A stretch of DNA of 64,000 nt from assembly GCA_004299485.1 (NCBI GenBank), contig SCQP01000016.1:213842-277841 (forward strand). The letters are read 5' to 3'. The notes beneath the pieces were generated by a model. It was given only the letters and a program-made list of their open reading frames with translations, was not told the origin of the DNA and searched no databases. The stretch is from Acidobacteriota bacterium (GTDB lineage: Bacteria; Acidobacteriota; Terriglobia; Terriglobales; SCQP01). Of the stretch, positions 8,202-34,674 are shown one piece after another; position 1 is the stretch's first letter, and each line of letters opens with the position of its first letter. The translations under genes were made by a program, and so were the position numbers.

Positions 8202-8953
8202 GCGACTGCTACTTCGAGTTCTGCAACGTCTACAAAAGCTTTGGCTCGAATACGGTCTTGCGGGACGTGAGCTTCGAGGTGTGCCGCGGCGAAACCGTCT
8301 GCATTCTCGGGCGTAGTGGCGTCGGCAAGTCGGTCATGCTGAAGCTGATCATGGGCTTTCTCACGCCCGATAGCGGCCGGATACTGGTGGACGGGCAGTC
8401 GGTTCCGGATATGACCGAGGCCGAACGGAATGCCATGCACAAGAAGGTAACGCTGGTGTTCCAGTCCGGCGCTTTGTTCGATTCGCTCACGGTGGCCGAA
8501 AACGTCGCCTTTCCACTGCGCGAGCGGGGCATGCACGACGAAGAAGAGATCGCGCAGGTGGTGGACGGCCTGCTGGACATGGTCGAGCTGCGCGCCGAGC
8601 GGGAAGACTACCCGGCGAGCCTGTCGACCGGGATGAAGCGCGCCGTGGCCATCGCGCGGGCGCTGGCCGCCAAACCCCAGGCCATCCTCTACGATGAGCC
8701 CACGACCATGGTGGACCCGATCATGGTGCAGAAGATCGCCGCCCTGATCGTGCGCGTGAAACAACAGGTCAAGTTGACGAGCATAGTTGTTACGCACGAC
8801 ACCCGCCTGGCCCGGCGCCTGGCCGATCGCCTGGTGCTGTTGCACGAGGGCGAAGTCCGCTTTTTCGGCACCGTGGCGGAGATGGATGCCACCGCCGATC
8901 CGGTCGTCCGCGAATTCCTGCGGCAGGACGAGTGGGCGCTCAAGGCGGGCTGA
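8198..8953 (+). CDS. ABC transporter ATP-binding protein (MlaF/Ttg2A-like)
   Basis: Walker A 'GRSGVGKS', signature variant 'LSTGMKRAVAIARAL', Walker B 'ILYDEPT', and the Mla-type 'MVDPIM' region. Confidence 0.8.
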   Translation: MSDCYFEFCNVYKSFGSNTVLRDVSFEVCRGETVCILGRSGVGKSVMLKLIMGFLTPDSGRILVDGQSVPDMTEAERNAMHKKVTLVFQSGALFDSLTVAENVAFPLRERGMHDEEEIAQVVDGLLDMVELRAEREDYPASLSTGMKRAVAIARALAAKPQAILYDEPTTMVDPIMVQKIAALIVRVKQQVKLTSIVVTHDTRLARRLADRLVLLHEGEVRFFGTVAEMDATADPVVREFLRQDEWALKAG

Positions 8954-8954
8954 G

Positions 8955-9065
8955 GTGGCTCGCCACTTTTTGCCCCGGTCGCTCCCGTTGGTCGCTCGGA
9001 GTGCGGGCTTCGATTCCCGGCAGAGTCCGCCCGCTGGCGCTCGGGGCTCCTCCAAGCTGCCGCCA
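8955..9065 (+). repeat. 111-bp interspersed repeat, copy 1
   Basis: Begins gtggctcgccactttttg and ends ctccaagctgccgcca. It starts 1 nt after the stop of the ABC ATPase gene. Near-identical copies lie at 29961-30071 and 34374-34484. Confidence 0.95.
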
Positions 9066-9521
9066 CATGTGCGCTTTTGGTCTCGTCCGCTGTTCCCTTT
9101 TTTTACGCTAACTGTACCACTTTGCAACGCAAAGCAGCGTATTTGCTGGGGATCTTGAATGTCTGGAGTGGCACACGCGGAACAGGAAATGGAACAGGCG
9201 CGTACGGGGCGCCGTGGCGGGTGGCGAGTCGCGAGTGGTGAGACAAGGCTGACGGACATGGTTCGAGTGTTGGATCGGCGGTGCGCACCCACGGTATCCC
9301 TGCTTCGCGCTCGCGCTACGCAGGGCAGGGCCGGCGGAGCTGCCCGGTCAAGCTAAGGACGGTTATGAGTAATTAGATGGGCAAAGGGATCATTTGGTTG
9401 GCCGGAAGGGAGAATGCGTGAGCCCTGAAATGGGACGGCGTGACCCCACATGAACGGGGATTGACTGCATCACGGCGTGAGTTGAGGCTGGTAGCTATTC
9501 GGCTCATTTCCGGACGCTGCC

Positions 9522-10847
9522 ATGCAGTTGAGAATCCCGCTCCTCGCCCCCGCCAGCAGGTTAATTGCCATCGCCCTATCGCTGTTCGGCGCTGGCTTGG
9601 CGTACGCGCAAATCCCCAATCTCACGGCTTCGACGGCGACGCCGTTACCCGAGCACGGCCATAGCTACATCAGCGCGCGGCTGCCGCAGGGCGACGATGC
9701 GGTGCAGGTGTTCGGCGGCGGCGTGAGCGAGTTCGTGAACCCGGCGACGGGATCGGTGAGTTGGCGCATTTGCACCACGCCGCCCAAAGGACGGCAGCTT
9801 TCGATCCCGTTCTGCTTCGTGTACGACTTCGCGGGCGTACACCATCTGGAAAACAACGCGCCGGGCAACCCGAGCTGGAATACGGACGCATCCTACCTCG
9901 AGCAGGGCGGCTGGACCTATTCGCTGCCGGAGCTGACGGAGGTGACGCGGCAGGAGGTGAACGGCAGCTATGTGTGCGACTACGCGACCGATTATATGTT
10001 CCGCGACAGCGAGGGCGGGCGGCACGCGATGGGGTTGTCGATTTTTGGTCCGGCGCCGGGCGCGCCCGCGAACTCGTGCTCCCAGGTGCAGCCGGCGCCG
10101 GGCGGGGTGACGACGGGCGGGGAGGGTGCGATTCTGGCGACGACGAGCGAGCCCAGCGGCAGCTTCAGCCTGCAGCCGGTAACGGTCACCGATGCCGACG
10201 GCACCCGCTACATCTTCAACGACCCCGGCAGGCAGGCGCTGGCGAACGGCTTCACGGCCGAGCTGCCCGACGTCATTGAAGACCGCAACGGCAACGAGAT
10301 CACCCTCACGGACAGCGGCAGTGGCAAGGTGACCGCGACCGACACGGTGGGCCGGGCGGCGGTGGCGACCTCGGGGTTTGGGGCAAGCGCGGGCGACAGC
10401 GTGCAGATTGCGGGCGAGAGCGCGGCCTATACGGTAGACTGGGGCACGGCGGCGTCGAGCTACAGCGTAGACAGCACGTCCGAGTCAGGAACGTGTACAG
10501 TGCCGGGAACGGTTTCGGGTTCGCAGCCCGTGGTGACCTCGATTGAGCTGCCGGACGGCGAGAGCTTCACCTTCCAGTACGATGCGACCTATGGGCTGCT
10601 CGACCGGGTGACGTTCCCAACGGGCGGCTACGTGCGCTACGTCTGGGGGATGAACGCGGCCGCCGAAGGCGGGCAGTTCGCCTCGACCAGCGGAACCTGC
10701 CTGGACCGCTACGGCGAGCCGGCGATCACGGCGCGCTACGTCAGCCTCGACGGGTCAAGTGAGGTTCTGGACCAGAGCTTTGCCTACGCGACCACCTGGC
10801 CATCGAGCGGGGCGGCGTGGAGCAGTAACGGTCACCAATCAGGATGA
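9522..10847 (+). CDS. RHS/YD-repeat protein, N-terminal part with Sec signal peptide (probably the 5' portion of a frameshifted gene)
   Basis: Signal-like N-terminus 'MQLRIPLLAPASRLIAIALSLFGAGLAYAQ'. The ORF ends inside the overlap with the next ORF, which continues the same type of sequence in another frame. Confidence 0.7.
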   Translation: MQLRIPLLAPASRLIAIALSLFGAGLAYAQIPNLTASTATPLPEHGHSYISARLPQGDDAVQVFGGGVSEFVNPATGSVSWRICTTPPKGRQLSIPFCFVYDFAGVHHLENNAPGNPSWNTDASYLEQGGWTYSLPELTEVTRQEVNGSYVCDYATDYMFRDSEGGRHAMGLSIFGPAPGAPANSCSQVQPAPGGVTTGGEGAILATTSEPSGSFSLQPVTVTDADGTRYIFNDPGRQALANGFTAELPDVIEDRNGNEITLTDSGSGKVTATDTVGRAAVATSGFGASAGDSVQIAGESAAYTVDWGTAASSYSVDSTSESGTCTVPGTVSGSQPVVTSIELPDGESFTFQYDATYGLLDRVTFPTGGYVRYVWGMNAAAEGGQFASTSGTCLDRYGEPAITARYVSLDGSSEVLDQSFAYATTWPSSGAAWSSNGHQSG

Positions 10848-13800
10848 AGTGCGGGGCGCAAGCGTCGCCACCGTTTACGCCTACTCCGGCTACACGGTGC
10901 CCTTGCAGCCAAACGACGCGACCGTTTCGACGCTGCAAATGCCGGTGGAGGCAACGATTACGGCCAAAGACTGGAACGGGGCGACGCTGCGGACAACGGC
11001 GGAAACGTGGAACAACCCGCGCGAGATGGCGTCGAAGGAAATTACCGAAGATGATGGCAAGGTGAGCGAGCAGACCTACTTTTACGATGCGAACGAACAG
11101 CAAACGGAAAGGGACGAGTACGACTACGGCTCGGGCGCGCCGGGCGCGCTCACCCGGGTGACGCTGCATACCTACGGTTGCGCGCCCGGCGTGCACATCG
11201 TGGACCGGCCGACGGTGGTTGAGATCGAGGGCAGCTCGCGGACGGTGACGGCGGAGACCGAGTACGCCTACGACCAGTCGCCGCTGGTGGCGAGCGGCGC
11301 CACCGATGGGCGCGATCCGGCCTACGGGGCCGGCCGGGGCATCACCGCGCGCTGCAACCTGACCACGTTGACCAAGGTTAACTACACCGGCAACATCAGC
11401 GAATCGTTTACGTATGACGATGCCGGAAATCGGCTCACCCACGCCGACGGCAACGGCAATACCACGAGCTTTGCCTATAGTTCGAGCGATCAGGCAGCCT
11501 ACCTTACCCAGATCACGCTGCCGAACACCACGACCGCGGGCAAGACCGTCCAGCACTCGTTCACCATGGCCTACGACAACACGACGGGTCTTGAGACCTC
11601 GCGCACGGACGTGCAGAACGCGACCACGACCAGCTTCACCTACAGCGATCCGCTCGACCGGCTCACCGGGCAGAACAATCCGGATGGCGGCAAGATCACC
11701 TACGCCTATACGGCCAACTCGGTCGAGACCAAAAAGCTGGCGATAAACTCCGCCTGGACCGACGCATTTGCGCACTGGGGTGGCCTGGGCAGTGCCGACC
11801 GCAAGCTGACGTACAACGGGACCAATTGGGACACGACCGACACGGCGTTCGACGGCGAGCAGATGCCACTGTATGTTTCCTATCCCTATTTTTCGAGCGG
11901 CATCGGCTCGACCAAGGCCACCAGCAACTCCACCGAGCCAGGCGACACGACCGCGTTTGATGGCCTGGGGCGCCCGACGCAGATCCTACACTCCGATGGA
12001 GGTACGATGACCATAGCTTACTCCGGTCCCAACCGGACGGTCACCGACGCCGCCGGACGGGCGCGCGAGGAGTTCTATGATGCACTCGGGCGTCTGGCCG
12101 AAGTGAAGGAGTTCACTGACGCCAGCGGCGACGGCTACGCCACCTACTATGGCTACGGTTCGCTCGATGACTTGAAGGCTGTGACCCAGGGCAGCGAGAC
12201 GCGCACGTTCGATTATGACAATCTCAACCGGCTGGTGGACGCGATCAACCCGGAAGGTGGAACAGTGGACTATACCTACGACAACGACGGCAACTTAATC
12301 AAGCAGCAGGACGCCAACGGCACCATCGAGAACTACACGTATGACGCGCTCAATCGTTTGCGCGCGCGCAGCTACACGGTGAGCGGCAAGACCGCGGCAA
12401 CGCCAGCGGTCGAGATCGACTACGACATCGACTCCACCGGTGCTGCGACCGATTACGCCACTGGCCGCATGACGCGGGTCATCAGCGGTTCAACTTCAAT
12501 TGGCATGGACCAGTACGATGCCATGGGCCGATTGCAGACCTATGACACCGTCGTGAGCAGCCAAACGTATCACACCAGCCTGCGTTACGACTATCTGGGC
12601 GACGCCGAGTGGGAGGAGCTGCCCGATGGGCGCGAGATTGACGCCACCACGGATTACGAAGGGCGGGCGAAGTTTTTGTCGGACCAGACGGCGAAGTACG
12701 ATTTCCTGCACTATCGGACCTACTCGCCGGCGGGCGGGCTGAGCGAAGAGGAGTTTGGCAACGGGCTGGTAGGGTACGTGGACTACAACAGCCGCCTGCA
12801 ACCGGTTCAGATCTCGGTCAAAAACCCCAGCGATCCGAGCGATAATACCTGGAGAATGAACCTCTCGATTGGATATACGGAGGCGGGGGTGCAGACGGCC
12901 GATAACGGCAACGTGGTTTCCCTGACGGATGCGCTCGGCAACGCGAGCCAGAACTACACCATGAATTACGACCATCTCAACCGATTGCTGAGCTGGTCGA
13001 TGGGAGGAGGTACGAGCTGTCAATTTGCGATTGATCAGTACGGCAACCTGGGTTTGTCGAGCGGCAGCGGCTGCGCGATGCTGAGCGGGCTGAGCTTCAA
13101 CGGCAACAATCAGATCGTGGGCTACACGTACGACGCGAGCGGGGATTTGTTGACGGATAACGCCGGGTCGAACTACGCCTGGGACGGCAACAGCCAGTTG
13201 GTGAACTTCTACACCGGGGGCGCAAGCGGCAGCTACGTGTACGACGGCCTGCTGCGGCGGGTGGAAAAGGCGGCGGACTCGGTCACGACCGTCTACGCGC
13301 GGGACGCGCTGGGCAACGTGGTGGCGAGCCTGACGAACGGCGTCTGGACGGACTACGTCTGGGCGAACCCGCCCGGGGCGGGCAACCGGATGGCCGCGGC
13401 GCCGGCGTCGCCGGATGCGGAGCGGATAGCGGCGGTGGTCGGCTCGGGGGTGGGCACGGTGTACTATTTCCACACCGACCAGGTCGGGACCACGCGCGCC
13501 GTAACCGACGAGAACGGCAACAACGTAGCCACGTGCGGGCAGAACGCGACGTACCCGAACGGGAGCTTTCTGACCTATGGCCCGTTCGGCATGCCGACGG
13601 GCTGCACGCAGACGGCGACGCCGATTCTGTTCACCGGGCACGAGCTGGACAGCGAATCGAACCTGAGCCAGTTCCAGTACCGCAAGTACGCGGCGCTGGA
13701 AGCCCGCTGGGCCACGCCCGACCCGGCCGGGGTGAACGGCCCGCCTGCGCCCTCGCCCAACGGCTTTGACCTCGGCCCGGCTGCCGCGGGCGCACCCGGC

Positions 13801-14088
13801 GATCTCGAACCCGAATCGCCCGTCGCGAGCTTGGCGACCCTGCCTGGCTTCGGCCTCCCGCTCGGTGGCGTCGACCCGCTTGAACCGCAGACATGGAACC
13901 CGTATGCGTATGTCGGCAATACGCCCGTAGTTTTCGTCGACCCGTCGGGACGATGGTGGGGCTGCGTAGCAATGAGCGTTGGCGCCCTAGGCTTTGGGCT
14001 TGCCGGCCTGGCCACGGCGGACCCGTTCCTCGGCGCTATTGGGTGGTCCCTCGGCGCCCACGCCCTGGCATGCCACTTTGTGATGTGA
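10759..14088 (+). CDS. RHS/YD-repeat polymorphic toxin, main body plus 44-aa C-terminal tip
   Basis: Many YD repeats (e.g. 'YTYDNDGNLIKQQDANGTIENYTYDALNRL'). RHS core end 'FTGHELDSESNLSQFQYRKYAALEARWATPDP' followed by 'NPYAYVGNTPVVFVDPSGR'. There is no credible start near 10759, so it is probably fused to 9522-10847 by a +1 shift near 10820. Confidence 0.85.
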   Translation: MRFWTRALPTRPPGHRAGRRGAVTVTNQDEVRGASVATVYAYSGYTVPLQPNDATVSTLQMPVEATITAKDWNGATLRTTAETWNNPREMASKEITEDDGKVSEQTYFYDANEQQTERDEYDYGSGAPGALTRVTLHTYGCAPGVHIVDRPTVVEIEGSSRTVTAETEYAYDQSPLVASGATDGRDPAYGAGRGITARCNLTTLTKVNYTGNISESFTYDDAGNRLTHADGNGNTTSFAYSSSDQAAYLTQITLPNTTTAGKTVQHSFTMAYDNTTGLETSRTDVQNATTTSFTYSDPLDRLTGQNNPDGGKITYAYTANSVETKKLAINSAWTDAFAHWGGLGSADRKLTYNGTNWDTTDTAFDGEQMPLYVSYPYFSSGIGSTKATSNSTEPGDTTAFDGLGRPTQILHSDGGTMTIAYSGPNRTVTDAAGRAREEFYDALGRLAEVKEFTDASGDGYATYYGYGSLDDLKAVTQGSETRTFDYDNLNRLVDAINPEGGTVDYTYDNDGNLIKQQDANGTIENYTYDALNRLRARSYTVSGKTAATPAVEIDYDIDSTGAATDYATGRMTRVISGSTSIGMDQYDAMGRLQTYDTVVSSQTYHTSLRYDYLGDAEWEELPDGREIDATTDYEGRAKFLSDQTAKYDFLHYRTYSPAGGLSEEEFGNGLVGYVDYNSRLQPVQISVKNPSDPSDNTWRMNLSIGYTEAGVQTADNGNVVSLTDALGNASQNYTMNYDHLNRLLSWSMGGGTSCQFAIDQYGNLGLSSGSGCAMLSGLSFNGNNQIVGYTYDASGDLLTDNAGSNYAWDGNSQLVNFYTGGASGSYVYDGLLRRVEKAADSVTTVYARDALGNVVASLTNGVWTDYVWANPPGAGNRMAAAPASPDAERIAAVVGSGVGTVYYFHTDQVGTTRAVTDENGNNVATCGQNATYPNGSFLTYGPFGMPTGCTQTATPILFTGHELDSESNLSQFQYRKYAALEARWATPDPAGVNGPPAPSPNGFDLGPAAAGAPGDLEPESPVASLATLPGFGLPLGGVDPLEPQTWNPYAYVGNTPVVFVDPSGRWWGCVAMSVGALGFGLAGLATADPFLGAIGWSLGAHALACHFVM
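12847..13913 (+). repeat. 1,067-bp direct repeat, copy A (inside the main RHS gene)
   Basis: Aligns colinearly with 14952-16018 at a constant offset of 2105 nt with no indels. Differences are scattered single-base substitutions. Confidence 0.9.
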
Positions 14089-14108
14089 TCCGCTCGGAGA
14101 GAGGCAAA

Positions 14109-14441
14109 ATGGAGACTCAATTTGACCCCCGGCGCGAGATCCAGGTTATTTGGGTCATGCTTGGTTTCATGGTCGTGGGTTGCGCTTTTATGGCTTGGTC
14201 CGTGGCTTCCGCATTTGCTGGCCCCGTGATGTGGACGATAGCGGTCGCGGTGGGTGCGCCTGCGGCGGTATTTGCCTTTTATCTGTCGAGCTTCCGTTCC
14301 AGCCTGCGTCGGATGGGCAGCACGGCTAGTTCCCAGGGGCAGCGATCTCTCATGAGGCTAATGGCAGCAGCGGCGTTTTATGTTGGGGCTGTCGGGTTAG
14401 CGGTCGGTGAGGCCATAGGCCGTGTACCAGGAGGACACTGA
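14109..14441 (+). CDS. Small membrane protein, candidate immunity protein for the RHS tip
   Basis: 110 aa from the ATG at 14109, preceded by 'ggagagagg'. Starts 21 nt after the RHS stop. About 3 hydrophobic helices ('VIWVMLGFMVVGCAFMAWSVA', 'VMWTIAVAVGAPAAVFAFYL', 'AAAAFYVGAVGLAVG'). Confidence 0.6.
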   Translation: METQFDPRREIQVIWVMLGFMVVGCAFMAWSVASAFAGPVMWTIAVAVGAPAAVFAFYLSSFRSSLRRMGSTASSQGQRSLMRLMAAAAFYVGAVGLAVGEAIGRVPGGH

Positions 14442-14796
14442 ACAGACAATGCCTGACGCTAAGAGTTCCACCGCCGCGCTGGCCTCCACGCACGTTCGGC
14501 GAACGTTTGCGCTCCTTGGGCTGGTACTGATGTTGGCCTGCACGAGCATATTTGATATAGAGCTGGTTCGGGGGTTTGGTGTACCGTTCGGCCCAGTGTT
14601 CTTGCTGCTGTTCATCGCCATCCAGGTATACGCGATATGGCTCTACATAACTCACGTCGCATCTGCTGGCTACGATCCAGATCCACAGGTTATTGCGACC
14701 TCGATCGGGCTGGAGGGCGCCTTCCTCCTACTGGCTATCACGACGTCAGCTATCTCTATCACCGGAGCCTACGTTCTCAGCCTTATCAAGGCTTAA
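14422..14796 (+). CDS. Small membrane protein (second immunity-like gene)
   Basis: 124-aa ORF (alternative ATG at 14449) with 3-4 hydrophobic helices. The DNA is visibly AT-richer than its surroundings. Confidence 0.55.
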   Translation: MYQEDTEQTMPDAKSSTAALASTHVRRTFALLGLVLMLACTSIFDIELVRGFGVPFGPVFLLLFIAIQVYAIWLYITHVASAGYDPDPQVIATSIGLEGAFLLLAITTSAISITGAYVLSLIKA

Positions 14797-14951
14797 AATG
14801 CGTGATCACCGGATCAATCGGCTTTTTAGTTGGTCCAGGGGCGTCTGCGCGGCGGGTCCCGGCGAGCCGCCGGCAGCGGGCGGGACGGATGGTGCGGGAG
14901 GGGCGGGGGGGCCCGGCGCTTGCGGGATGAGCCCAATCATCGCAGCAGTGC

Positions 14952-16018
14952 ACCTGGAGGATGGACCTGTCGATTGGGTATACGAAGGCGGGGGTGCAGA
15001 CGGCCGATAACGGCAACGTGGTTTCCCTGACGGATGCACTCGGCAACGCGAGCCAGGATTACACCATGAACTACGATCAGCTCAACCGTTTGCTGAGCTG
15101 GTCGACGGGAGGAGGCACGAGCTGTCAATTTGCAATCGATCAGTACGGCAACCTGGGTTTGTCGAGCGGCACGGGCTGCGCGATGCTGAGCGGGCTGAGC
15201 TTCAACAGCAACAATCAGATCGTCGGCTACAGCTACGACCCAAGCGGCAATTTGCTGACCGACAGCGCCGGGTCGAACTACACCTGGGACGGCAACAGCC
15301 AGTTGGTGAACTTCTACACCGAAGGCGCCAGCGGCAGCTACGTCTACGACGGTCTACTGCGGCGGGTGGAAAAGACGGCGGACTCGGTGACAACCGTCTA
15401 CGCGCGCGATGCGCTGGGCAACATGGTTGCGAGCCTGACGAACGGCGTCTGGACAGACTACATCTGGTCGAACCCGCCGAAAGCGGGCAACCGCGTGGCC
15501 GCAGCGCCGGCATCGCCTGAGGCCGAGCGGATCGCCGCGGTGGTTGGATCCGGGGTGGGCACGGTGTACTACTTCCATACCGACCAGGTCGGGACGACGC
15601 GCGCCGTGACCGACGAAAACGGCAATAACGTGGCCACGTGTGGGCAGAACGCGACGTACCCGAATGGGAGCTTTCTGACGTATGGTCCGTTCGGCATGCC
15701 GACGGGCTGCACGCAGACGGCGACGCCGATTCTGTTTACCGGCCACGAGCTGGACAGCGAATCGAACCTGAGCCAGTTCCAGTACCGCAAGTACGCCGCG
15801 CTGGAAGCCCGCTGGGCCACGCCCGACCCGGCAGGCGTGAACGGCCCGCCGGCGCCATCGCCCAACGGCTTTGATCTGGGCATAACCGCCGCGGGCGCGC
15901 CCGGCGACCTCGAACCCGAATCGCCCGTCGCCAGCCTGGCGACCCTGCCCGGCTTTGGCTTGCCGCTCGGTGGCGTCGACCCGCTCGAGCCGCAGACCTG
16001 GAACCCCTATGCATACGT
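14952..16018 (+). repeat. 1,067-bp direct repeat, copy B (orphan RHS cassette)
   Basis: Homologous to 12847-13913. Homology starts at acctggag and decays after tatgc(a/g)ta(c/t)gt. Confidence 0.9.
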
Positions 16019-16187
16019 GGATGGCGACCCGGCGTCTGGTTTCGATCCCGACGGCCGCTGGAACTGGTGCCTCACCGGAACAGTCGTGTCTATCGGCCTG
16101 AAGGTCTGGGGTATGACAGGGAACCCAATCGCCTTCGCCGCCGGTTGGTACCTCGGCGGCTATGTCGCTTTTGCGTGCCTCAAATGA
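14961..16187 (+). CDS. Orphan RHS C-terminal fragment with alternative 42-aa tip
   Basis: The 408-aa ORF duplicates the last ~355 aa of the RHS shell and core ('MDLSIGYTKAGVQTADNGN...FTGHELDSESNL...'). It then diverges to 'FDPDGRWNWCLTGTVVSIGLKVWGMTGNPIAFAAGWYLGGYVAFACLK'. The ATG at 14961 corresponds to an internal Met of the main gene, so independent translation is uncertain. Confidence 0.75.
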   Translation: MDLSIGYTKAGVQTADNGNVVSLTDALGNASQDYTMNYDQLNRLLSWSTGGGTSCQFAIDQYGNLGLSSGTGCAMLSGLSFNSNNQIVGYSYDPSGNLLTDSAGSNYTWDGNSQLVNFYTEGASGSYVYDGLLRRVEKTADSVTTVYARDALGNMVASLTNGVWTDYIWSNPPKAGNRVAAAPASPEAERIAAVVGSGVGTVYYFHTDQVGTTRAVTDENGNNVATCGQNATYPNGSFLTYGPFGMPTGCTQTATPILFTGHELDSESNLSQFQYRKYAALEARWATPDPAGVNGPPAPSPNGFDLGITAAGAPGDLEPESPVASLATLPGFGLPLGGVDPLEPQTWNPYAYVDGDPASGFDPDGRWNWCLTGTVVSIGLKVWGMTGNPIAFAAGWYLGGYVAFACLK

Positions 16188-17653
16188 GCGGAGCCGAGCG
16201 GCGGTCCGCGAGCGCGCTGGCCTCCTTTTGGTTCTTAGTAGGCGCGCTGCTGGGCGGGCGGTGGCGCAGGACTCAGGCTCGCGGGGGTGCGCTGCCGCTT
16301 CTGGTGGGGTTGGCAGCCGGGATCACGCTGGGAGTTTCGCTGATTGCTCGCTTGCACGCGAACCTCAGCCCGGCGGCGTTCGATGGACGCATGGGCGAGT
16401 TGGGGCTGGGGTTGTGGGGCGCGTGGCTGGCGTCGGCGGCAATCCTGCGTGTGGACTTCGGGTGGCACGTGCCGCTGCGCCCGTGGGCCATCCGGCCTGG
16501 GTTCTGGGCTGGTTATACGGCCGCGGTTGCGCTGGCGCCGCTCACCGCTGTGGTCGCCGGCGGGTTTGTGGTCACTTTGGTCGCCGCGGTGCTTGCGTTG
16601 CGGCCTTCTGCAGGTGGGGCGCTGCTGCTGGTGGCGGCGCTTTCGCTATTGTTCTTTGCTACGCTGCGCGTGACGCATTTGGCGCTGGTGCTACTCCGAC
16701 CGGGCGGAGCCGTCGTTGAGCGCATGGCCGGGCTCGCCATTGCCCTTGGGCTGGCAACCTGGAACTGGCTGGCAGGAGGCCTGGTGCCGCTGCATTGGGT
16801 GGGACAGCGTGCGGGCGGCGTGGCGGAACTGCTCGGATTGCTTTTGGCGGTTTGTGCTGCGGACGGCTGGCTCACGCGACGCGTCCTGCTGCAAGGACTG
16901 GCAGGGCGGCAGCGGGAAGTGATTCGCACCGGAGCGTTGGGTGCAGGCGCGGGTCCGGCTGCGGCCCTCCGCCGCGCGGCGCTGATTGGCTGGTTGCGGC
17001 ATGCCAACATCGACTTCGCGTTAGCCTTCGGCGCGCTTTGGCTCCCGATATTCGCCCTGCTCGCGCCCGGTACAATGCAGCCGGGGATGCCGATTGCCTT
17101 CTGCGGCTTTGCGCTGCTTTTCCTTTCGCTAGTGCGCGGGAATCTGCTTGGCATTGACGGCGCCGGAACCTGGCGCCATGCGTCGGCCGCGGTGGCGCCA
17201 TGGCAAGTGCTTTTGCAGCGCGGGCGGGTGCTGGATTGGATCGAAATTGTCGTCCTTGCGCCGACGCTGGCTCTTTCGGTGGCCCAGCGGCCCGGGGGCT
17301 GGACGGGGATCGTGGCGACAGTCGCGTTCGCGGTGAGCACTATTTCCTCGCAAGGCGCGGCGGGGTTGTTGCTGTCGTGCGCCTACCCGGAGCCGGTAGA
17401 GCGCTCGGATTTCCGCTCCGGAATGAATGCGACCGGAGGGAATTGGATTCTGCTGGGCACCATGATCTGGACGGTAGGCTTCCTGCTTGCATTTCTGCGC
17501 ACCTGGCCCGGCGCCGCGGCGTGGATCTGGCCGGCAGCGCTTGCCGGGGTCTGCCTGCTGATCCGGGAGGCGGTGGTCCGGCGTTTAAAGAGTCAGCTTG
17601 CGACTACCTGGCCGGCGCGGGTGCTGGCGCGGATGGGAGCGGTGCTGTCGTGA
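16184..17653 (+). CDS. Large polytopic membrane protein (putative ABC-exporter permease)
   Basis: About 490 aa from the ATG at 16184, which overlaps the orphan RHS stop (ATGA). At least 10 hydrophobic segments. Followed by an ABC ATPase with a GTGA overlap. The track ORF begins at 16067 inside the RHS fragment. Confidence 0.65.
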   Translation: MSGAERRSASALASFWFLVGALLGGRWRRTQARGGALPLLVGLAAGITLGVSLIARLHANLSPAAFDGRMGELGLGLWGAWLASAAILRVDFGWHVPLRPWAIRPGFWAGYTAAVALAPLTAVVAGGFVVTLVAAVLALRPSAGGALLLVAALSLLFFATLRVTHLALVLLRPGGAVVERMAGLAIALGLATWNWLAGGLVPLHWVGQRAGGVAELLGLLLAVCAADGWLTRRVLLQGLAGRQREVIRTGALGAGAGPAAALRRAALIGWLRHANIDFALAFGALWLPIFALLAPGTMQPGMPIAFCGFALLFLSLVRGNLLGIDGAGTWRHASAAVAPWQVLLQRGRVLDWIEIVVLAPTLALSVAQRPGGWTGIVATVAFAVSTISSQGAAGLLLSCAYPEPVERSDFRSGMNATGGNWILLGTMIWTVGFLLAFLRTWPGAAAWIWPAALAGVCLLIREAVVRRLKSQLATTWPARVLARMGAVLS

Positions 17654-18465
17654 GCGCGGCGATCGAGTTGCGGGAGGCGAGCAAGCGCTACGGCGATTGG
17701 GGGCGCTTTGCGGTTGAAGCGCTGTCGTTCGCGGTCGAGACGGGTACAGTGCTGGGCCTCGTGGGCCCGAATGGCGCCGGCAAGACGACGACTATATTTA
17801 TGCTTGCGGGCTTGCTGGAGCCGAGCGCGGGAACGCTACGGGTGCTGGGGCGTGAGGTGCGGCCGGGGCTCGGCGACCCGCGCGTGGGGCTGGTATCCGG
17901 CTCGCTCGAGGAATTCGACTATTTGACGGGGACGGAGTCAGTGATCCTGGTGGGACGTCTGCTGGGGCTGCCGGGCCGGGAGGCGGCGCGGCGGGCGGAG
18001 GCGCTGCTGAAGCTATTCGATCTTGGTGGGGCGGAGAACGGCCTGTTGCCGACTTATTCTTCCGGGATGAAGCAGAAAATCCGGGTTGCATGCGCGCTCG
18101 TGGGCACTCCGGAGGTGCTGCTGCTGGATGAGCCGTTCGAGGCACTGGATATTACGGCGAGCGCGATTTTGGCCGAAATCATCCGGCGGTTTGCAGCGGG
18201 CGGGGGAACGGTGCTGCTCGCCAGTCATGATCTGCGGCTGGTGGAGCGGGTGGCGACACATTACGCGATCCTGAAAGCCGGGCGGCTGGTCGAGACCGGC
18301 AGCCTGAGCGCGCTCGCCAGCGGCACGGCCGACGGGGGCGGAGGGCACCCGGCGCTGGAGCAGCGGTTCTGGGAGCTGACTGGGCCGCCTGCGGTTCCCG
18401 AACTTGACTGGCTGCGGCAAGGGAGTGAGGGCTCCGCCTGTGCCGGCGAGCCCGCGGGAAGCTGA
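17650..18465 (+). CDS. ABC transporter ATP-binding protein (ABC-2/DrrA-like)
   Basis: Walker A 'GPNGAGKTT', signature 'YSSGMKQKIRVA', Walker B 'LLLDEPFEALD', H-loop 'LASHD'. The GTG at 17650 overlaps the upstream stop; the track ORF starts at 17200. Confidence 0.8.
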   Translation: MSAAIELREASKRYGDWGRFAVEALSFAVETGTVLGLVGPNGAGKTTTIFMLAGLLEPSAGTLRVLGREVRPGLGDPRVGLVSGSLEEFDYLTGTESVILVGRLLGLPGREAARRAEALLKLFDLGGAENGLLPTYSSGMKQKIRVACALVGTPEVLLLDEPFEALDITASAILAEIIRRFAAGGGTVLLASHDLRLVERVATHYAILKAGRLVETGSLSALASGTADGGGGHPALEQRFWELTGPPAVPELDWLRQGSEGSACAGEPAGS

Positions 18466-18516
18466 AGGCATGAGAGTGGCTCGACCCTGGCGGCGCGGGG
18501 CGCTTATGATTAGGTT

Positions 18517-19392
18517 GTGAACTCAATTCATGCTTTTGCCTGGCACAACGGCCAGCTGGTTCCCACTGCGGAGCTGCGGGTCTCGCCGCTGCAGACGGGG
18601 CTGCTGAGCGGCTGGGGGCTGTTCAGTACGCTGCGGATTTACCAGGGCGTGCCGTTTGCTCTGGAAGATCACTGGCAGCGACTGGCGACCGATGGGGCCA
18701 AGCTGCTGATGGATATGAGTGGGCTGGAAGAGGAGATGCAGCGCGCGCTGGCGGCCGTCATCGCCCGGAATGACGCGCAGGAGGCGGTAGCGCGGGTGTA
18801 CTTCATCCGCAACGGCGGCGGATTGCTGGACTGCCCGCATGAGCGCGCGACCGACGTGCTGGTGTTTACGCGGGCGCTGCGGAGCTGGGGCGAGGCGGCA
18901 AAGCTGCTGTTGCAGCCACATGGGCGCGACCCGGAAGCGCCGCTGGCGGGCACCAAGACGCTGACCTGGTCGCATAACCTGGTGCAGGTGGAGCAGGCGC
19001 ATGCGCGCGGCTACGACGACGTGCTGCTGCTGAATCCGCGCGGGGAAGTGGCCGAATGCACTTCGGCGAACATTTTTGTGGCGCGCAACGGGCGGCTGCG
19101 CACGCCGCCGCTGAGCTCGGGCGCGTTGCCGGGCATCAGCCGCAAGCTGTTGCTGGCGGCCGCGCCCAAGCACGGACTGAAAATTGAGGAAGCGGCGCTG
19201 ACCGAGGCCGATTTGTACACGGCCGAGGAGATTTTCATCACCTCGAGCACGCGCGAGGTGCAGGCGGTGGAGCGGATTGAAGCCCGGGACATTCCGCGCG
19301 GGCCGCTGACCGCGCGCGCCCAAGCTATCTTCAAGGAACTGGTGGGGGGTTACGTGGCATCGCACAAGGAGCTCGCGGCAAAACAGGTATGA
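18517..19392 (+). CDS. Class IV aminotransferase (branched-chain aminotransferase / aminodeoxychorismate lyase family)
   Basis: 291 aa with fold-type IV pattern ('ECTSANIFVARNGRLRTPP', 'LPGISR', 'EIFITSSTREV'). Confidence 0.75.
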   Translation: MNSIHAFAWHNGQLVPTAELRVSPLQTGLLSGWGLFSTLRIYQGVPFALEDHWQRLATDGAKLLMDMSGLEEEMQRALAAVIARNDAQEAVARVYFIRNGGGLLDCPHERATDVLVFTRALRSWGEAAKLLLQPHGRDPEAPLAGTKTLTWSHNLVQVEQAHARGYDDVLLLNPRGEVAECTSANIFVARNGRLRTPPLSSGALPGISRKLLLAAAPKHGLKIEEAALTEADLYTAEEIFITSSTREVQAVERIEARDIPRGPLTARAQAIFKELVGGYVASHKELAAKQV

Positions 19393-29952: not shown

Positions 29953-30885
29953 TTAGCTATGTGGCTCGCCACTTTTTGCTTTGGTCGCTCCCGTTGGTCG
30001 CTTGGAGTGCGGGCTTCGATTCCCGGCAGGATCCGCCCGCTGGCGCTCGGGGCTCCTCCAAGCTGCCGCCAAGGGCGGCGCGCCCGCCTTACCTCGCGCC
30101 CTTGGTTGGCGTGGGGTTGCTTTTTGCAGGCCGAACATTTCGGCTTCGGTCAGGGGACGCATCTTTCCTGATTGTAGCTGGCCAATGGTCAATTTGCCGA
30201 TGGCCACGCGTTTCAGCTTTTCCACCGGGTGACCGACGAGCTGGAACATTTTGCGGATTTGATGATAGCGGCCTTCGACCAGCACCACCTCGAGCCAGGG
30301 ATTTTCGCGCGAGGTGCGGTAAACGCCTGCCTGCTGGCGGGCGCGGCCGCTGGCGCCGGCGTCGCGCAGCCAGCGGATTTGCGCCGGCGCGGTGCGCCGG
30401 CCATCGATCGTGACGCCGCGCCGGAGCCGTTCGAGATGTTCTTCGCTGGGCCGGCCGCTGACTTTCACCCAGTAGGTCTTGGGCAGCGCCGTGCTGGCTT
30501 TCAGTACATGGTTGGCGAGCTCGCCGTCGTTGGTAAGCAGGATCAGGCCCTCGGAGTGAAAATCCAGCCGCCCGACGGGATAGAGACGCTCCTTGATGCC
30601 CCGCAGCAGGCGAGTGTAATCGCTGATGCTGGGGCGGCCCTCTGGATCCCTGAGGGTGCTGACCACACCTTTGGGCTTGTAAAACAGCAGGTAGCGCAGG
30701 TTCCGTTCGCGCTGGAGCGGCTTGCCGGCTACGGCAATCCGGTCCGTGTCCCAGTCGGCTTTGCTGCCCAGCTCGGTCACAATGCGGCCGTTGACGCTCA
30801 CCTGGCCGGTGGTGATCAGTGTTTCCGCTTGCCGGCGGGAGGCATACCCCGCCTGGGCGATGAGCTTTTGCAGCCGGCTTTTCAT
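29953..30885 (-). CDS. rluB: 23S rRNA pseudouridine synthase (RluB/RsuA family) with repeat-derived C-terminal tail
   Basis: S4 domain 'MKSRLQKLIAQAGYASRRQAETLI' and catalytic 'GRLDFHSEGLILLTNDG'. ATG at 30885 chosen; the track ORF begins at 31155. The last ~39 aa are 'LAAAWRSPERQRADPAGNRSPHSKRPTGATKAKSGEPHS'. Confidence 0.85.
   Translation of the reverse strand: MKSRLQKLIAQAGYASRRQAETLITTGQVSVNGRIVTELGSKADWDTDRIAVAGKPLQRERNLRYLLFYKPKGVVSTLRDPEGRPSISDYTRLLRGIKERLYPVGRLDFHSEGLILLTNDGELANHVLKASTALPKTYWVKVSGRPSEEHLERLRRGVTIDGRRTAPAQIRWLRDAGASGRARQQAGVYRTSRENPWLEVVLVEGRYHQIRKMFQLVGHPVEKLKRVAIGKLTIGQLQSGKMRPLTEAEMFGLQKATPRQPRARGKAGAPPLAAAWRSPERQRADPAGNRSPHSKRPTGATKAKSGEPHS
29961..30071 (+). repeat. 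111-bp interspersed repeat, copy 2
   Basis: Same element as 8955-9065. Read on the minus strand, it supplies the last ~37 codons of the rluB ORF. Confidence 0.95.
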
Positions 30886-33243: not shown

Positions 33244-34674
33244 TCAATTGCCGAAGACCGCGCCATGCGGGATGGCGCTGCCGGTCCAGCCGTTCGGCCA
33301 GCGGCGGGTGAGGTTGAGCTTGTAAGGCAGCAGACGGAGTTGGCCGGTGCTGCGGTTGATGGCGGCAAACAAAACTTCGGTTTCCATGGCGCCATACCCC
33401 GTAATCACCAGGCGATCGCCTCCAGGTTCGGCGGCAATCCAGTGCGGGTCATTGCTTGGCGGCAGCAGGATGCGGCTGACCTCATGCGGGTGTTCGGGGT
33501 CGTGCATATCGATGCTGAGGATGGCGTGGCCGCTTTGGGTATTCCAGATGAGGTATTGTCCCTCAACGACGGGAACTTCGCAAAAGCGGTAGCCGGGGTC
33601 GTAGATAGCGCGCAGCGTGGGATTATTGCCGGCGAGGCCGTCGACCCGGTACAGGCCGCAGTAGAAGTCGGGTACGACGACGGTGCGGCCATCGGCAAGC
33701 ACGCGCGGCTCGGAAGAATCGGCAACGTCGGGGAGCGTGCGCGGATCCGAGCCGGGCAGAACCATGGTCTTGAGCAGTGTGAGATCGGAGAGACGCCAGA
33801 CCTGCGCAACGCGGCTGGGCTGCGCGCCCATCATGTCGGCGCTGCTGGAGACGACGCGGTCGAGCGCGGGCACGACGGCCAGGCTATAGGGGCGAATATT
33901 CGGGTAGCCGGCGACCGCAGCGGAGACGGAGCGGACGACATGCCCGTCGGGCGCGAACTCGACCAGCCCGCCGGTGGCGTGATTGAAGCCGCCGGAGTAT
34001 TGAAACGTCGCCAGGGTGTTGCCGTTCGGCAAATAGATGAACGAGTGCGGGTAGCTGAAGTTGCCCACACTGCCAAACTGCCGCAGCAGGCGCGGGTGCA
34101 GGGGGTTGTGAAGATTGAAAACGTAGGTCTGGTTGCCGAGCCAGTCGTTGGCGTACAAATGACCATCCGGCGGCAGAGCGTAGCTGGTGTGGTGGGCCAT
34201 GCTCGCCTGGCCCACGGGCAGCATGGCGACGAGCTTGCCGAAGGGCTTGGCGCCGGGCGCGACGTTGAACACGGCCAGAAAATCGCGGCCCAGGCCTTGC
34301 GGCGAGCGGACGCCGGGTTTCATCTCCATAGCGGCATGCGGATGCCGTGACTCCATGGCCCAAACAAAAAGATGTGGCTCGCCACTTTTTGCTTTGGTCG
34401 CTCCCGATGGTCGCTTGGGGTGCGGACTTCGATTCCCGGCAGGGTCCGCCCGCTGGCGCTCGGGGCTCCTCCAAGCTGCCGCCAAATGACTTTGACTGGC
34501 ACGGGGCCTGGCGTGGCTGCGCCACGCCACCCGCTTGACGCTCGGCCGGGCCGAGGGCCCCGGGAGCCCCGGCCCGGCCTTCGCGTTAGGCTGCGGCGGG
34601 CGGGTTGCGGCCAGCAGCAGCGGCAGCGCGGCGGCGAGCGCGGCCAACAGGCAAGCGAGGGGGAGGCGCTTCAT
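33244..34674 (-). CDS. Selenium-binding-protein-like beta-propeller protein (SBP56/methanethiol-oxidase-like); N-terminal region contains repeat copy 3
   Basis: 'LFVWA...DFLAVFNVAPGAKPFGKLVAMLPVGQASMAHHTSY' resembles the SBP56-family N-terminus. 'MKRLPLACLLAALAAALPLLLAA' looks like a signal peptide. The true start is uncertain; internal Mets lie at about 34356 and 34329. Confidence 0.6.
   Translation of the reverse strand: MKRLPLACLLAALAAALPLLLAATRPPQPNAKAGPGLPGPSARPSVKRVAWRSHARPRASQSHLAAAWRSPERQRADPAGNRSPHPKRPSGATKAKSGEPHLFVWAMESRHPHAAMEMKPGVRSPQGLGRDFLAVFNVAPGAKPFGKLVAMLPVGQASMAHHTSYALPPDGHLYANDWLGNQTYVFNLHNPLHPRLLRQFGSVGNFSYPHSFIYLPNGNTLATFQYSGGFNHATGGLVEFAPDGHVVRSVSAAVAGYPNIRPYSLAVVPALDRVVSSSADMMGAQPSRVAQVWRLSDLTLLKTMVLPGSDPRTLPDVADSSEPRVLADGRTVVVPDFYCGLYRVDGLAGNNPTLRAIYDPGYRFCEVPVVEGQYLIWNTQSGHAILSIDMHDPEHPHEVSRILLPPSNDPHWIAAEPGGDRLVITGYGAMETEVLFAAINRSTGQLRLLPYKLNLTRRWPNGWTGSAIPHGAVFGN
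34374..34484 (+). repeat. 111-bp interspersed repeat, copy 3
   Basis: Same element. It lies in frame inside ORF 33244-34674, between the signal-like N-terminus and the conserved 'LFVWA' block. Confidence 0.95.

Follow-up and report, generated by a model that had tools for sequence, protein, structure and literature searches.

A probable tandem arrangement of main and orphan rhs cassettes sharing a 1,067-bp core repeat in a Terriglobales metagenome-assembled genome

The rhs locus described here lies in a 64,000-nucleotide stretch (hereafter the window, meaning the whole stretch) of contig SCQP01000016.1, which belongs to a metagenome-assembled genome (MAG) of the order Terriglobales within the phylum Acidobacteriota. 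It is probably a polymorphic-toxin locus in which a main rhs cassette and an orphan rhs-CT (C-terminal) cassette stand in tandem, and in which a long direct repeat represents the core sequence that each of them carries. Coordinates refer to the window unless a contig is named. The two cassettes comprise the following elements.

12847-13913, + strand: repeat copy 1, the final 355 codons of the main rhs core, with WNPYAYV as its end (offset alignment, self-BLAST)
13914-14088, + strand: variable end 1, the last core residues with DPSG (13939-13950) and then a peptide of about 43 amino acids (tip 1), WGCVAMSVGALGFGLAGLATADPFLGAIGWSLGAHALACHFVM
14109-14441, + strand: small membrane protein 1, 110 amino acids, about three hydrophobic segments, preceded by GAGAGAGG
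14422-14796, + strand: small membrane protein 2, 124 amino acids from GTG 14422, with an alternative ATG at 14450 after AGGAGG
14797-14951, + strand: spacer between small membrane protein 2 and the orphan, 155 nt, 71% G+C
14952-16018, + strand: repeat copy 2, the orphan core fragment (offset alignment, Pfam/NCBIfam); the orphan open reading frame (ORF) is 14961-16187, 408 amino acids
16019-16187, + strand: variable end 2, DPDG and then a peptide of about 41 amino acids (tip 2), NWCLTGTVVSIGLKVWGMTGNPIAFAAGWYLGGYVAFACLK
16184-17653, + strand: polytopic membrane protein, 489 amino acids, whose ATG overlaps the orphan stop codon (ATGA)
17650-18465, + strand: ABC transporter ATPase, 271 amino acids, DrrA/ABC-2 type, whose GTG overlaps the preceding stop codon (PF00005, 2.1e-23)

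The direct repeat

The two copies match at 965 of 1,067 positions (90.4%), with 102 mismatches, no insertions or deletions, and a fixed offset of 2,105 nt. The preliminary description of this DNA had reported just such a constant offset with scattered substitutions, and the alignment bears it out, given that 2,000 random offsets used as a control yielded a mean identity of 27.4% and a maximum of 33.5%. When the whole 64-kb window was compared with itself by BLAST, this pair was the only long repeat and by far the longest one, and an Rfam search of the window returned no matches. Read in 50-nt bins at the 2,105-nt offset, identity is 16-36% before 12847 and 22-48% after 13913. The homology indeed begins abruptly, as had been stated, with a sharp left edge at ACCTGGAG and matching at the random level upstream of it. 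The right edge falls within the Val codon of W-N-P-Y-A-Y-V (13912-13914). Its earlier placement immediately after NPYAYV was accurate as to the codon, but this point is nine codons short of the final DPxG motif, so it is not the true end of the core. Inside the repeat are eight perfectly identical runs of 26-53 bp each.

Both copies are Rhs core sequence, in agreement with the original assignment. Each exceeds the curated cut-offs of the Pfam RHS_repeat and RHS models and of TIGR03696, with 51.7 and 54.1 bits for TIGR03696 (cut-off 32.5) and 29.2 and 29.6 bits for PF03527 (cut-off 27.9).

The differences between the copies are concentrated at third codon positions (77 of the 102), and Nei-Gojobori estimates are 0.033 for dN and 0.37 for dS. 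The resulting dN/dS of 0.09, a comparison that the preliminary description had proposed, indicates that both copies are under purifying selection. With the Rhs of the closest genome match (L003, introduced below) as an outgroup, seven amino-acid changes are assigned to the main lineage, six to the orphan lineage, and nine are ambiguous. An untranslated relic that diverged in place would be expected to show relaxation on one branch, and the near-equal counts therefore do not indicate such a relic. The available strains are only about 1% apart, and a dS of 0.37 goes far beyond that. Three histories fit these data: the copies may have diverged in functional genes of different lineages and then been united, the orphan may be translated, or the cassettes may alternate in the expressed position.

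The possibility that the repeat is an assembly artefact, in which one rhs 3' end, present in two strain versions, was duplicated or joined into a chimera, has to be weighed because the window is part of a MAG and because short-read contigs break within the repeat. However, each copy runs into different unique sequence, and both copy-to-tip junctions were recovered at 100% identity in two Logan contigs of run SRR8426591 (L015 and L016), a separate assembly that probably draws on the same underlying reads as the MAG. Moreover, on a single contig of a sister strain (L018) the orphan follows an rhs 3' end with one gene in between, and the same kind of array is found in another relative (L020). A divergence of 10% that is skewed to third codon positions is also unlike a duplication error. 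Because the copies differ at 102 sites biased by codon position, and because of the Logan junctions and the sister contig, the artefact that the preliminary description had named as its possible refutation is very improbable. The mostly synonymous character of the divergence effectively rules out both an artefact and a recent duplication in place.

Cassette turnover in a sister strain

The sister contig L018 is a 5.2-kb piece of a separate assembly (GCA_040961365.1) and is 99.2% identical to the window over 14959-19047, a region that spans the orphan, the gene for the 489-residue membrane protein, the ATPase gene, and the start of an aminotransferase gene. Of 101 diagnostic sites in its orphan, 96 agree with repeat copy 2. 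Ahead of this orphan, L018 carries a third rhs 3' end, which is 88% identical to either window copy and terminates, after DQFGL, in an unrelated Cys-rich tip of about 55 amino acids with eight Cys residues (tip 3; within L018 2-1084). Tip 3 is followed by an ORF of 159 amino acids that appears soluble and non-membrane, that has no Pfam match, and whose stop codon lies 1 nt before the start of the orphan ORF. A further contig of that assembly (L002) covers the 5' flank and the first 570 nt of rhs, where its identity to the window is 98.7%.

Both flanks and the orphan are thus common to the two strains, and the cassette between them differs, which reveals turnover of cassettes at this locus. Between these near-identical strains the upstream cassette has been replaced, not lost. 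Ten mismatches separate L018 from the window inside the repeat, seven of them clustered in the opening 50 nt, and the left junctions of the two orphans are about 8 nt apart. From this pattern we infer a right-hand crossover just inside the orphan core.

The tips and their partner genes

The copies part after WNPYAYV. Each runs on for 8-9 core residues, which include DPSG or DPDG, and then ends in a tip of about 43 residues. Gly, Ala, and hydrophobic residues abound in both tips, and a Cys stands close to either end of each. The preliminary description had called these ends variable, and the copies do diverge there, but the tips are not unrelated to each other, because they are 40% identical over 43 amino acids (pairwise E = 3e-06). 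A dN/dS value for the tips, which had also been proposed, is not meaningful at this level of identity and length, with synonymous sites saturated.

Relatives of the tips were found only by searching with the entire orphan protein, which identified proteins with cores 52-70% identical. Altogether, at least six different tips occur on cores that are 64-90% identical (tip 1, tip 2, tip 3 of L018, and those of L003, P0004, P0005, P0006, and P0007).

Tip 2 has counterparts, recognizable by a GWYLGG sequence, at the ends of the Rhs proteins P0004 and P0006. On the corresponding contigs (L026-L030), these Rhs genes are followed by genes for a homologous membrane protein and an ABC ATPase. The membrane protein of the window is 45% identical to L030_421 (E = 1e-86) and 37% identical to L026_534 (E = 1e-71), both of which directly follow tip-2-type Rhs ends, and its ATPase is 63-64% identical to those of L027 and L030. 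These membrane-protein homologues were located by genomic context and not by sequence search; the 489-residue protein has no Pfam or NCBIfam match, and a protein-collection search returned only the protein itself. It is probably the permease partner of the ATPase. The ATPase matches the drrA model TIGR01188 (1.3e-52) and the model for a lantibiotic-protection ABC subunit, TIGR03740 (5.6e-32), in each case below the curated cut-off. The genes that flank tip-2-type cassettes differ among L026-L029 and L030, that is, the cassettes occupy different genomic settings. On this comparative evidence, the ABC genes are not incidental neighbours but a conserved partner of tip-2-type tips in three lineages.

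Tip 1 has a homologue in P0005, which ends in a related peptide (WGC...LCH) and is followed by two small membrane proteins, one of them homologous to small membrane protein 2 (E = 2e-06). The combination of a tip-1-type tip with a pair of small membrane proteins is retained in L020-L024. Moreover, L020, the contig of P0005, goes on to an orphan of a second, shorter type with a tip-1-type peptide and another small-protein pair, of which one member matches small membrane protein 2 (E = 1e-08); the two L020 counterparts that follow tip-1-type tips are 30-32% identical to it (E = 2e-06 and 1e-08). Small membrane protein 1 occurs as the exact product on L016 and is weakly similar to L020_109 (E = 0.006). 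Neither of the two small proteins has a Pfam or NCBIfam match. These arrangements make small membrane proteins 1 and 2 candidate immunity proteins for tip 1. Each tip type thus keeps its own type of partner across loci, which is the usual comparative signature of toxin-immunity pairs and suggests such a function here.

The short orphan of L020 (5511-5903) carries core sequence only from ...GRWATPDPAG, that is, about 75 core residues ahead of its tip-1-type peptide. Because it starts elsewhere in the core, the left boundaries of orphans vary within the family.

Third-position G+C content is 0.60 and 0.66 in the two small membrane genes, 0.81-0.87 in the rhs core, and 0.82 in a flanking housekeeping gene. 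The low values in the genes at 14109-14796 are consistent with acquisition of the cassette from a foreign source.

The main rhs gene

The main rhs gene had been described as full-length, but it is not a single ORF. It is split by a frameshift relative to the intact homologue in L003, the closest genome match, a Terriglobales MAG that has one uninterrupted 1,516-residue Rhs and no repeat.

9522-10847, + strand: first main-rhs frame, 441 amino acids, 73% identical to residues 2-416 of the L003 Rhs
10824-10828, + strand: main-rhs frameshift; tblastn against the L003 Rhs switches frame between 10823 and 10828
10849-14088, + strand: second main-rhs frame, 1,079 amino acids from GTG 10849 (open from 10759), with YD repeats, RHS core, and tip 1; 77% identical to residues 421-1464 of the L003 Rhs

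Residues 2-416 of the L003 protein align to 9582-10823, and residues 421-1464 align to 10828-13959 in another frame. At the frameshift site, 9 nt (encoding GKT) in the homologue correspond to 1 nt in the window, an 8-nt gap. The stop codon of the first frame is at 10845-10847, and the GTG 1 nt later at 10849 is a possible site of translation restart. Logan contig L017 (SRR8426591) has the same sequence at the frameshift and the same 441-residue product, so the frameshift is a feature of the data and not of one assembler. Programmed frameshifting was weighed as an explanation for 10824-10828 and not adopted, in view of the 8-nt gap relative to the homologue and the lack of a slippery run. With its main gene frameshifted, this genome may at present not support toxin delivery.

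By eye, rather than by tool prediction, the first frame begins with a Sec-type signal peptide, MQLRIPLLAPASRLIAIALSLFGAGLAYA, cut before Q. Scans of the main gene with Pfam and NCBIfam models gave matches to RHS_repeat (PF05593, 9.4e-20), RHS (8.3e-07), and TIGR03696 (9.5e-14). The YD-repeat family TIGR01643 was matched as well (2.8e-11).

The end of the core holds two motifs, PDPAG and DPSG(RW) or DPDG(RW), about 70 residues apart with a Pro/Ala/Gly-rich insert between them. In typical Rhs proteins a C-terminal DPxG...DPxG(L) signature for autoproteolysis delimits the tip, and its two DPxG motifs are about 18 residues apart. The insert is approximately 50 amino acids in length (VNGPPAPSPNGFDLG...LPGFGLPLGG), is located at about 13700-13895 and 15805-16000, and is kept in L003, P0004, and P0005.

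Frameshifts also occur in related main rhs genes from five JGI metagenome samples, at about 3530-3540 in L020 (and likewise in L021-L024) and at about 5040 in L021. One frameshift among the relatives lies just 13 or so codons before the conserved Met with which the window orphan starts; this closeness could be a coincidence or could mark a fragile spot.

The orphan

The orphan protein is identical to EPN33_12330 at NCBI, annotated to an 'Acidobacteria bacterium' MAG. It matches PF05593 (2.5e-07) and is 5'-truncated, because it aligns only to residues 1094-1463 of the L003 protein and its homology begins sharply at 14952. Its ATG is 9 nt inside the boundary of homology, and a GGAGG sequence directly abuts this ATG without a spacer. 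A promoter scan found no promoter-like site near the orphan, although the sigma-70 consensus used might not apply to this phylum.

Perhaps the orphan is translated by itself from the ATG at 14961, so that a 408-residue partial shell with tip 2 is co-expressed with the ABC genes, and the repeat is kept because each copy codes for a functional protein. The first ATG past the boundary is the one that opens the ORF, and this codon is a Met conserved in the family (TWRMNL or TWKMNL). The dN/dS of 0.09 and the lack of a surplus of amino-acid changes on the orphan branch are as this reading would predict, as are the close spacing to the upstream gene in L018 and the overlap of the orphan stop codon with the permease start. 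Also, Salmonella Rhs-CT/RhsI modules expressed internally behave as toxin-antitoxin pairs (PMC7043789). However, the abutting GGAGG is a poor geometry for ribosome binding, and the scan with the sigma-70 consensus offers no promoter. The product lacks a signal peptide, amounts to a quarter-shell that could not form a closed structure, and has no obvious route to a target cell. The low dN/dS is equally expected if the copy diverged within a full-length gene elsewhere and arrived recently. Independent translation is therefore fairly unlikely as the explanation for the repeat, and it would in any case be compatible with cassette switching. With its own ATG and its signature of purifying selection, the orphan may be something other than a silent relic.

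Proposed mechanism and its alternatives

In the tandem-cassette reading preferred here, cassettes would come from diverged donors, each bringing a portion of the core, and would enter by homologous recombination in the core, with the orphan core fragment as a possible right-hand homology arm. RecA-type exchange between the two copies could remove a 2,105-bp segment and fuse the main gene with tip 2 and the ABC genes, in the way known from Salmonella LT2; the identical runs of 26-53 bp would be enough for such exchange, at reduced frequency. The preliminary description had predicted this product, and a loss of 2,105 bp would indeed take both small membrane genes with it. However, because the main gene is frameshifted, the predicted fusion to tip 2 would still be a split gene in the present genome.

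The tips themselves, being hydrophobic, about 43 residues long, and flanked by Cys, may be membrane-active peptides that are freed at the DPxG site. The small membrane proteins would protect against tip 1, and the ABC transporter would protect against tip 2. More generally, it is tentatively suggested that this Rhs family delivers not enzymes but bacteriocin-like, Cys-flanked membrane peptides of about 40-55 amino acids, with self-protection against one peptide type by an ABC exporter (an uncharacterised permease with a DrrA-like ATPase) and against the other by a pair of small membrane proteins, and with exchange of cassettes by way of the core repeats.

Several observations weigh against these proposals. 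With respect to recombination, neither a recombinant nor a 2,105-bp deletion junction was found, and the short-read contigs all break at the 53-bp identical run. A metagenome scan with the orphan returned only relatives that are 25-28% identical and bear ordinary large tips, and it gave no junction data. The 10% divergence of the copies would lower the frequency of homologous recombination. L018 begins within its upstream rhs 3' end, which may or may not belong to a full-length main gene. With respect to the tips and their delivery, no Pfam family matches the tips at E <= 5, an alignment of the two tips had no matches in a word-indexed search of 5.8 billion proteins, and a full HMMER search of 1.84 billion representatives returned only the window's own Rhs. 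AlphaFold2 modeling of the orphan from a 10-sequence alignment was uninformative (pLDDT 40.8). A search for PAAR, VgrG, or type VI secretion system (T6SS) domains in the Rhs, its neighbouring genes, and the ten largest further ORFs of the window found none, and no dedicated secretion system came to light in these neighbours and ORFs.

The frameshift in the main gene, which is paralleled in the relatives L020-L024, also means that the locus may be decaying instead of switching. According to this view, an old duplication or insertion left a main pseudogene, and the protective genes alone are kept as a defense against the toxins of neighbours. Such decay would account for the frameshift in both the MAG and the Logan contig, for the frameshifted main genes of related loci in several samples, and for the lack of secretion genes found nearby. 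However, both core copies are open across 355 codons with a dN/dS of 0.09, and the halves of the main gene are 73-77% identical to the intact homologue without further stop codons, which implies that the frameshift is recent. The upstream cassette also differs between strains that are about 99% identical, a sign of recent activity. Decay without switching thus appears unlikely.

Comparison with known systems

The closest described parallel is in Salmonella Typhimurium LT2, in which rhs-main (STM0291) and rhs-CT-orphan (STM0292) share a 522-bp repeat with 95% identity (Koskiniemi 2014, PMC3967940). The same work provides a precedent for fusion of an orphan by recombination, and orphan rhs and cdiA-CT modules in general have been described (Poole 2011, PMC3150448). 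In LT2, a main rhs gene with its own tip and immunity genes is followed by a 5'-truncated core with a different tip and different immunity genes, and the core fragment forms a direct repeat; the window has the same layout, with putative immunity genes. The orphan-module architecture proposed in the preliminary description therefore holds: a truncated core fragment, a different tip, and different downstream genes correspond to the main and orphan genes of LT2. In both cases, recombination between the repeats would remove the first cassette and activate the second. The systems differ in that the window repeat is longer and more diverged (1,067 bp at 90%), that it belongs to an acidobacterium, and that its Rhs bears a Sec signal peptide in place of a linkage to T6SS, PAAR, or VgrG. 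Also unlike LT2, the main gene of the window is frameshifted, the tips are hydrophobic peptides of about 43 amino acids and not enzymes, the partner of tip 2 is a membrane protein plus an ABC ATPase and not a small immunity protein, and recombination is a prediction.

In the C-terminal displacement model of rhs evolution, reportedly formulated by Jackson et al. in 2009, as at the present locus, tips arrive with core sequence, older tips stay downstream as orphans, and strains differ in the tip on a conserved core. At this locus, the strain difference is directly visible against a background of about 99% identity, and the mismatch cluster at the start of the orphan hints that the orphan core might have served as a recombination arm.

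Tox-WTIP is a pore-forming tip with two membrane helices on RHS and PVC toxins, reported from proteobacteria (Zhang et al. 2012, PMC3482391). The window tips are similar in being short, non-enzymatic C-terminal tips with two hydrophobic segments on an RHS-repeat protein. However, as read from the sequences, the signature motifs of Tox-WTIP, RxxR in helix 1 and Wx[ST]IP in helix 2, are absent from tip 1 and tip 2.

Self-protection in bacteriocin and lantibiotic systems is provided by ABC exporters of the LanFEG or DrrAB type or by small membrane immunity proteins. The window is comparable in that a hydrophobic peptide is encoded beside small membrane proteins or beside an ABC-2/DrrA-like ATPase with a separate permease. 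In contrast to those systems, the peptide is the C-terminus of a 1,500-residue Rhs and not a leader-peptide precursor, the permease lacks a recognizable family, and protection is putative.

An intergenic repeat elsewhere in the window

A repeat of about 115 bp occurs three times between genes of the window (8952-9069, 29959-30072, and 34371-34488), with 91-96% identity among copies. It is predicted to form a long, imperfect hairpin and corresponds to no Rfam family. One copy lies between an upstream ABC ATPase gene and the start of rhs. The repeat may be a REP/MITE-like element or a small RNA.

Significance

A direct repeat with an orphan cassette is the textbook means of storing and swapping tips at rhs and cdi loci, and the architecture by itself adds little to what is established. 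The present locus extends it to soil Acidobacteriota and to an Rhs with a Sec signal peptide, near which no type VI secretion genes were found. The natural pair of strains, about 99% identical and differing only in the cassette upstream of a common orphan, gives a clean view of cassette replacement. The locus also points to an undescribed family of very short hydrophobic tips with an ABC transporter as a conserved partner. Should the tips prove membrane-active and the ABC pair protective, the locus would add to the Rhs cargoes and immunity mechanisms known for polymorphic toxins, and the peptide-delivery reading, if true, would combine encapsulation by Rhs with bacteriocin-style immunity.

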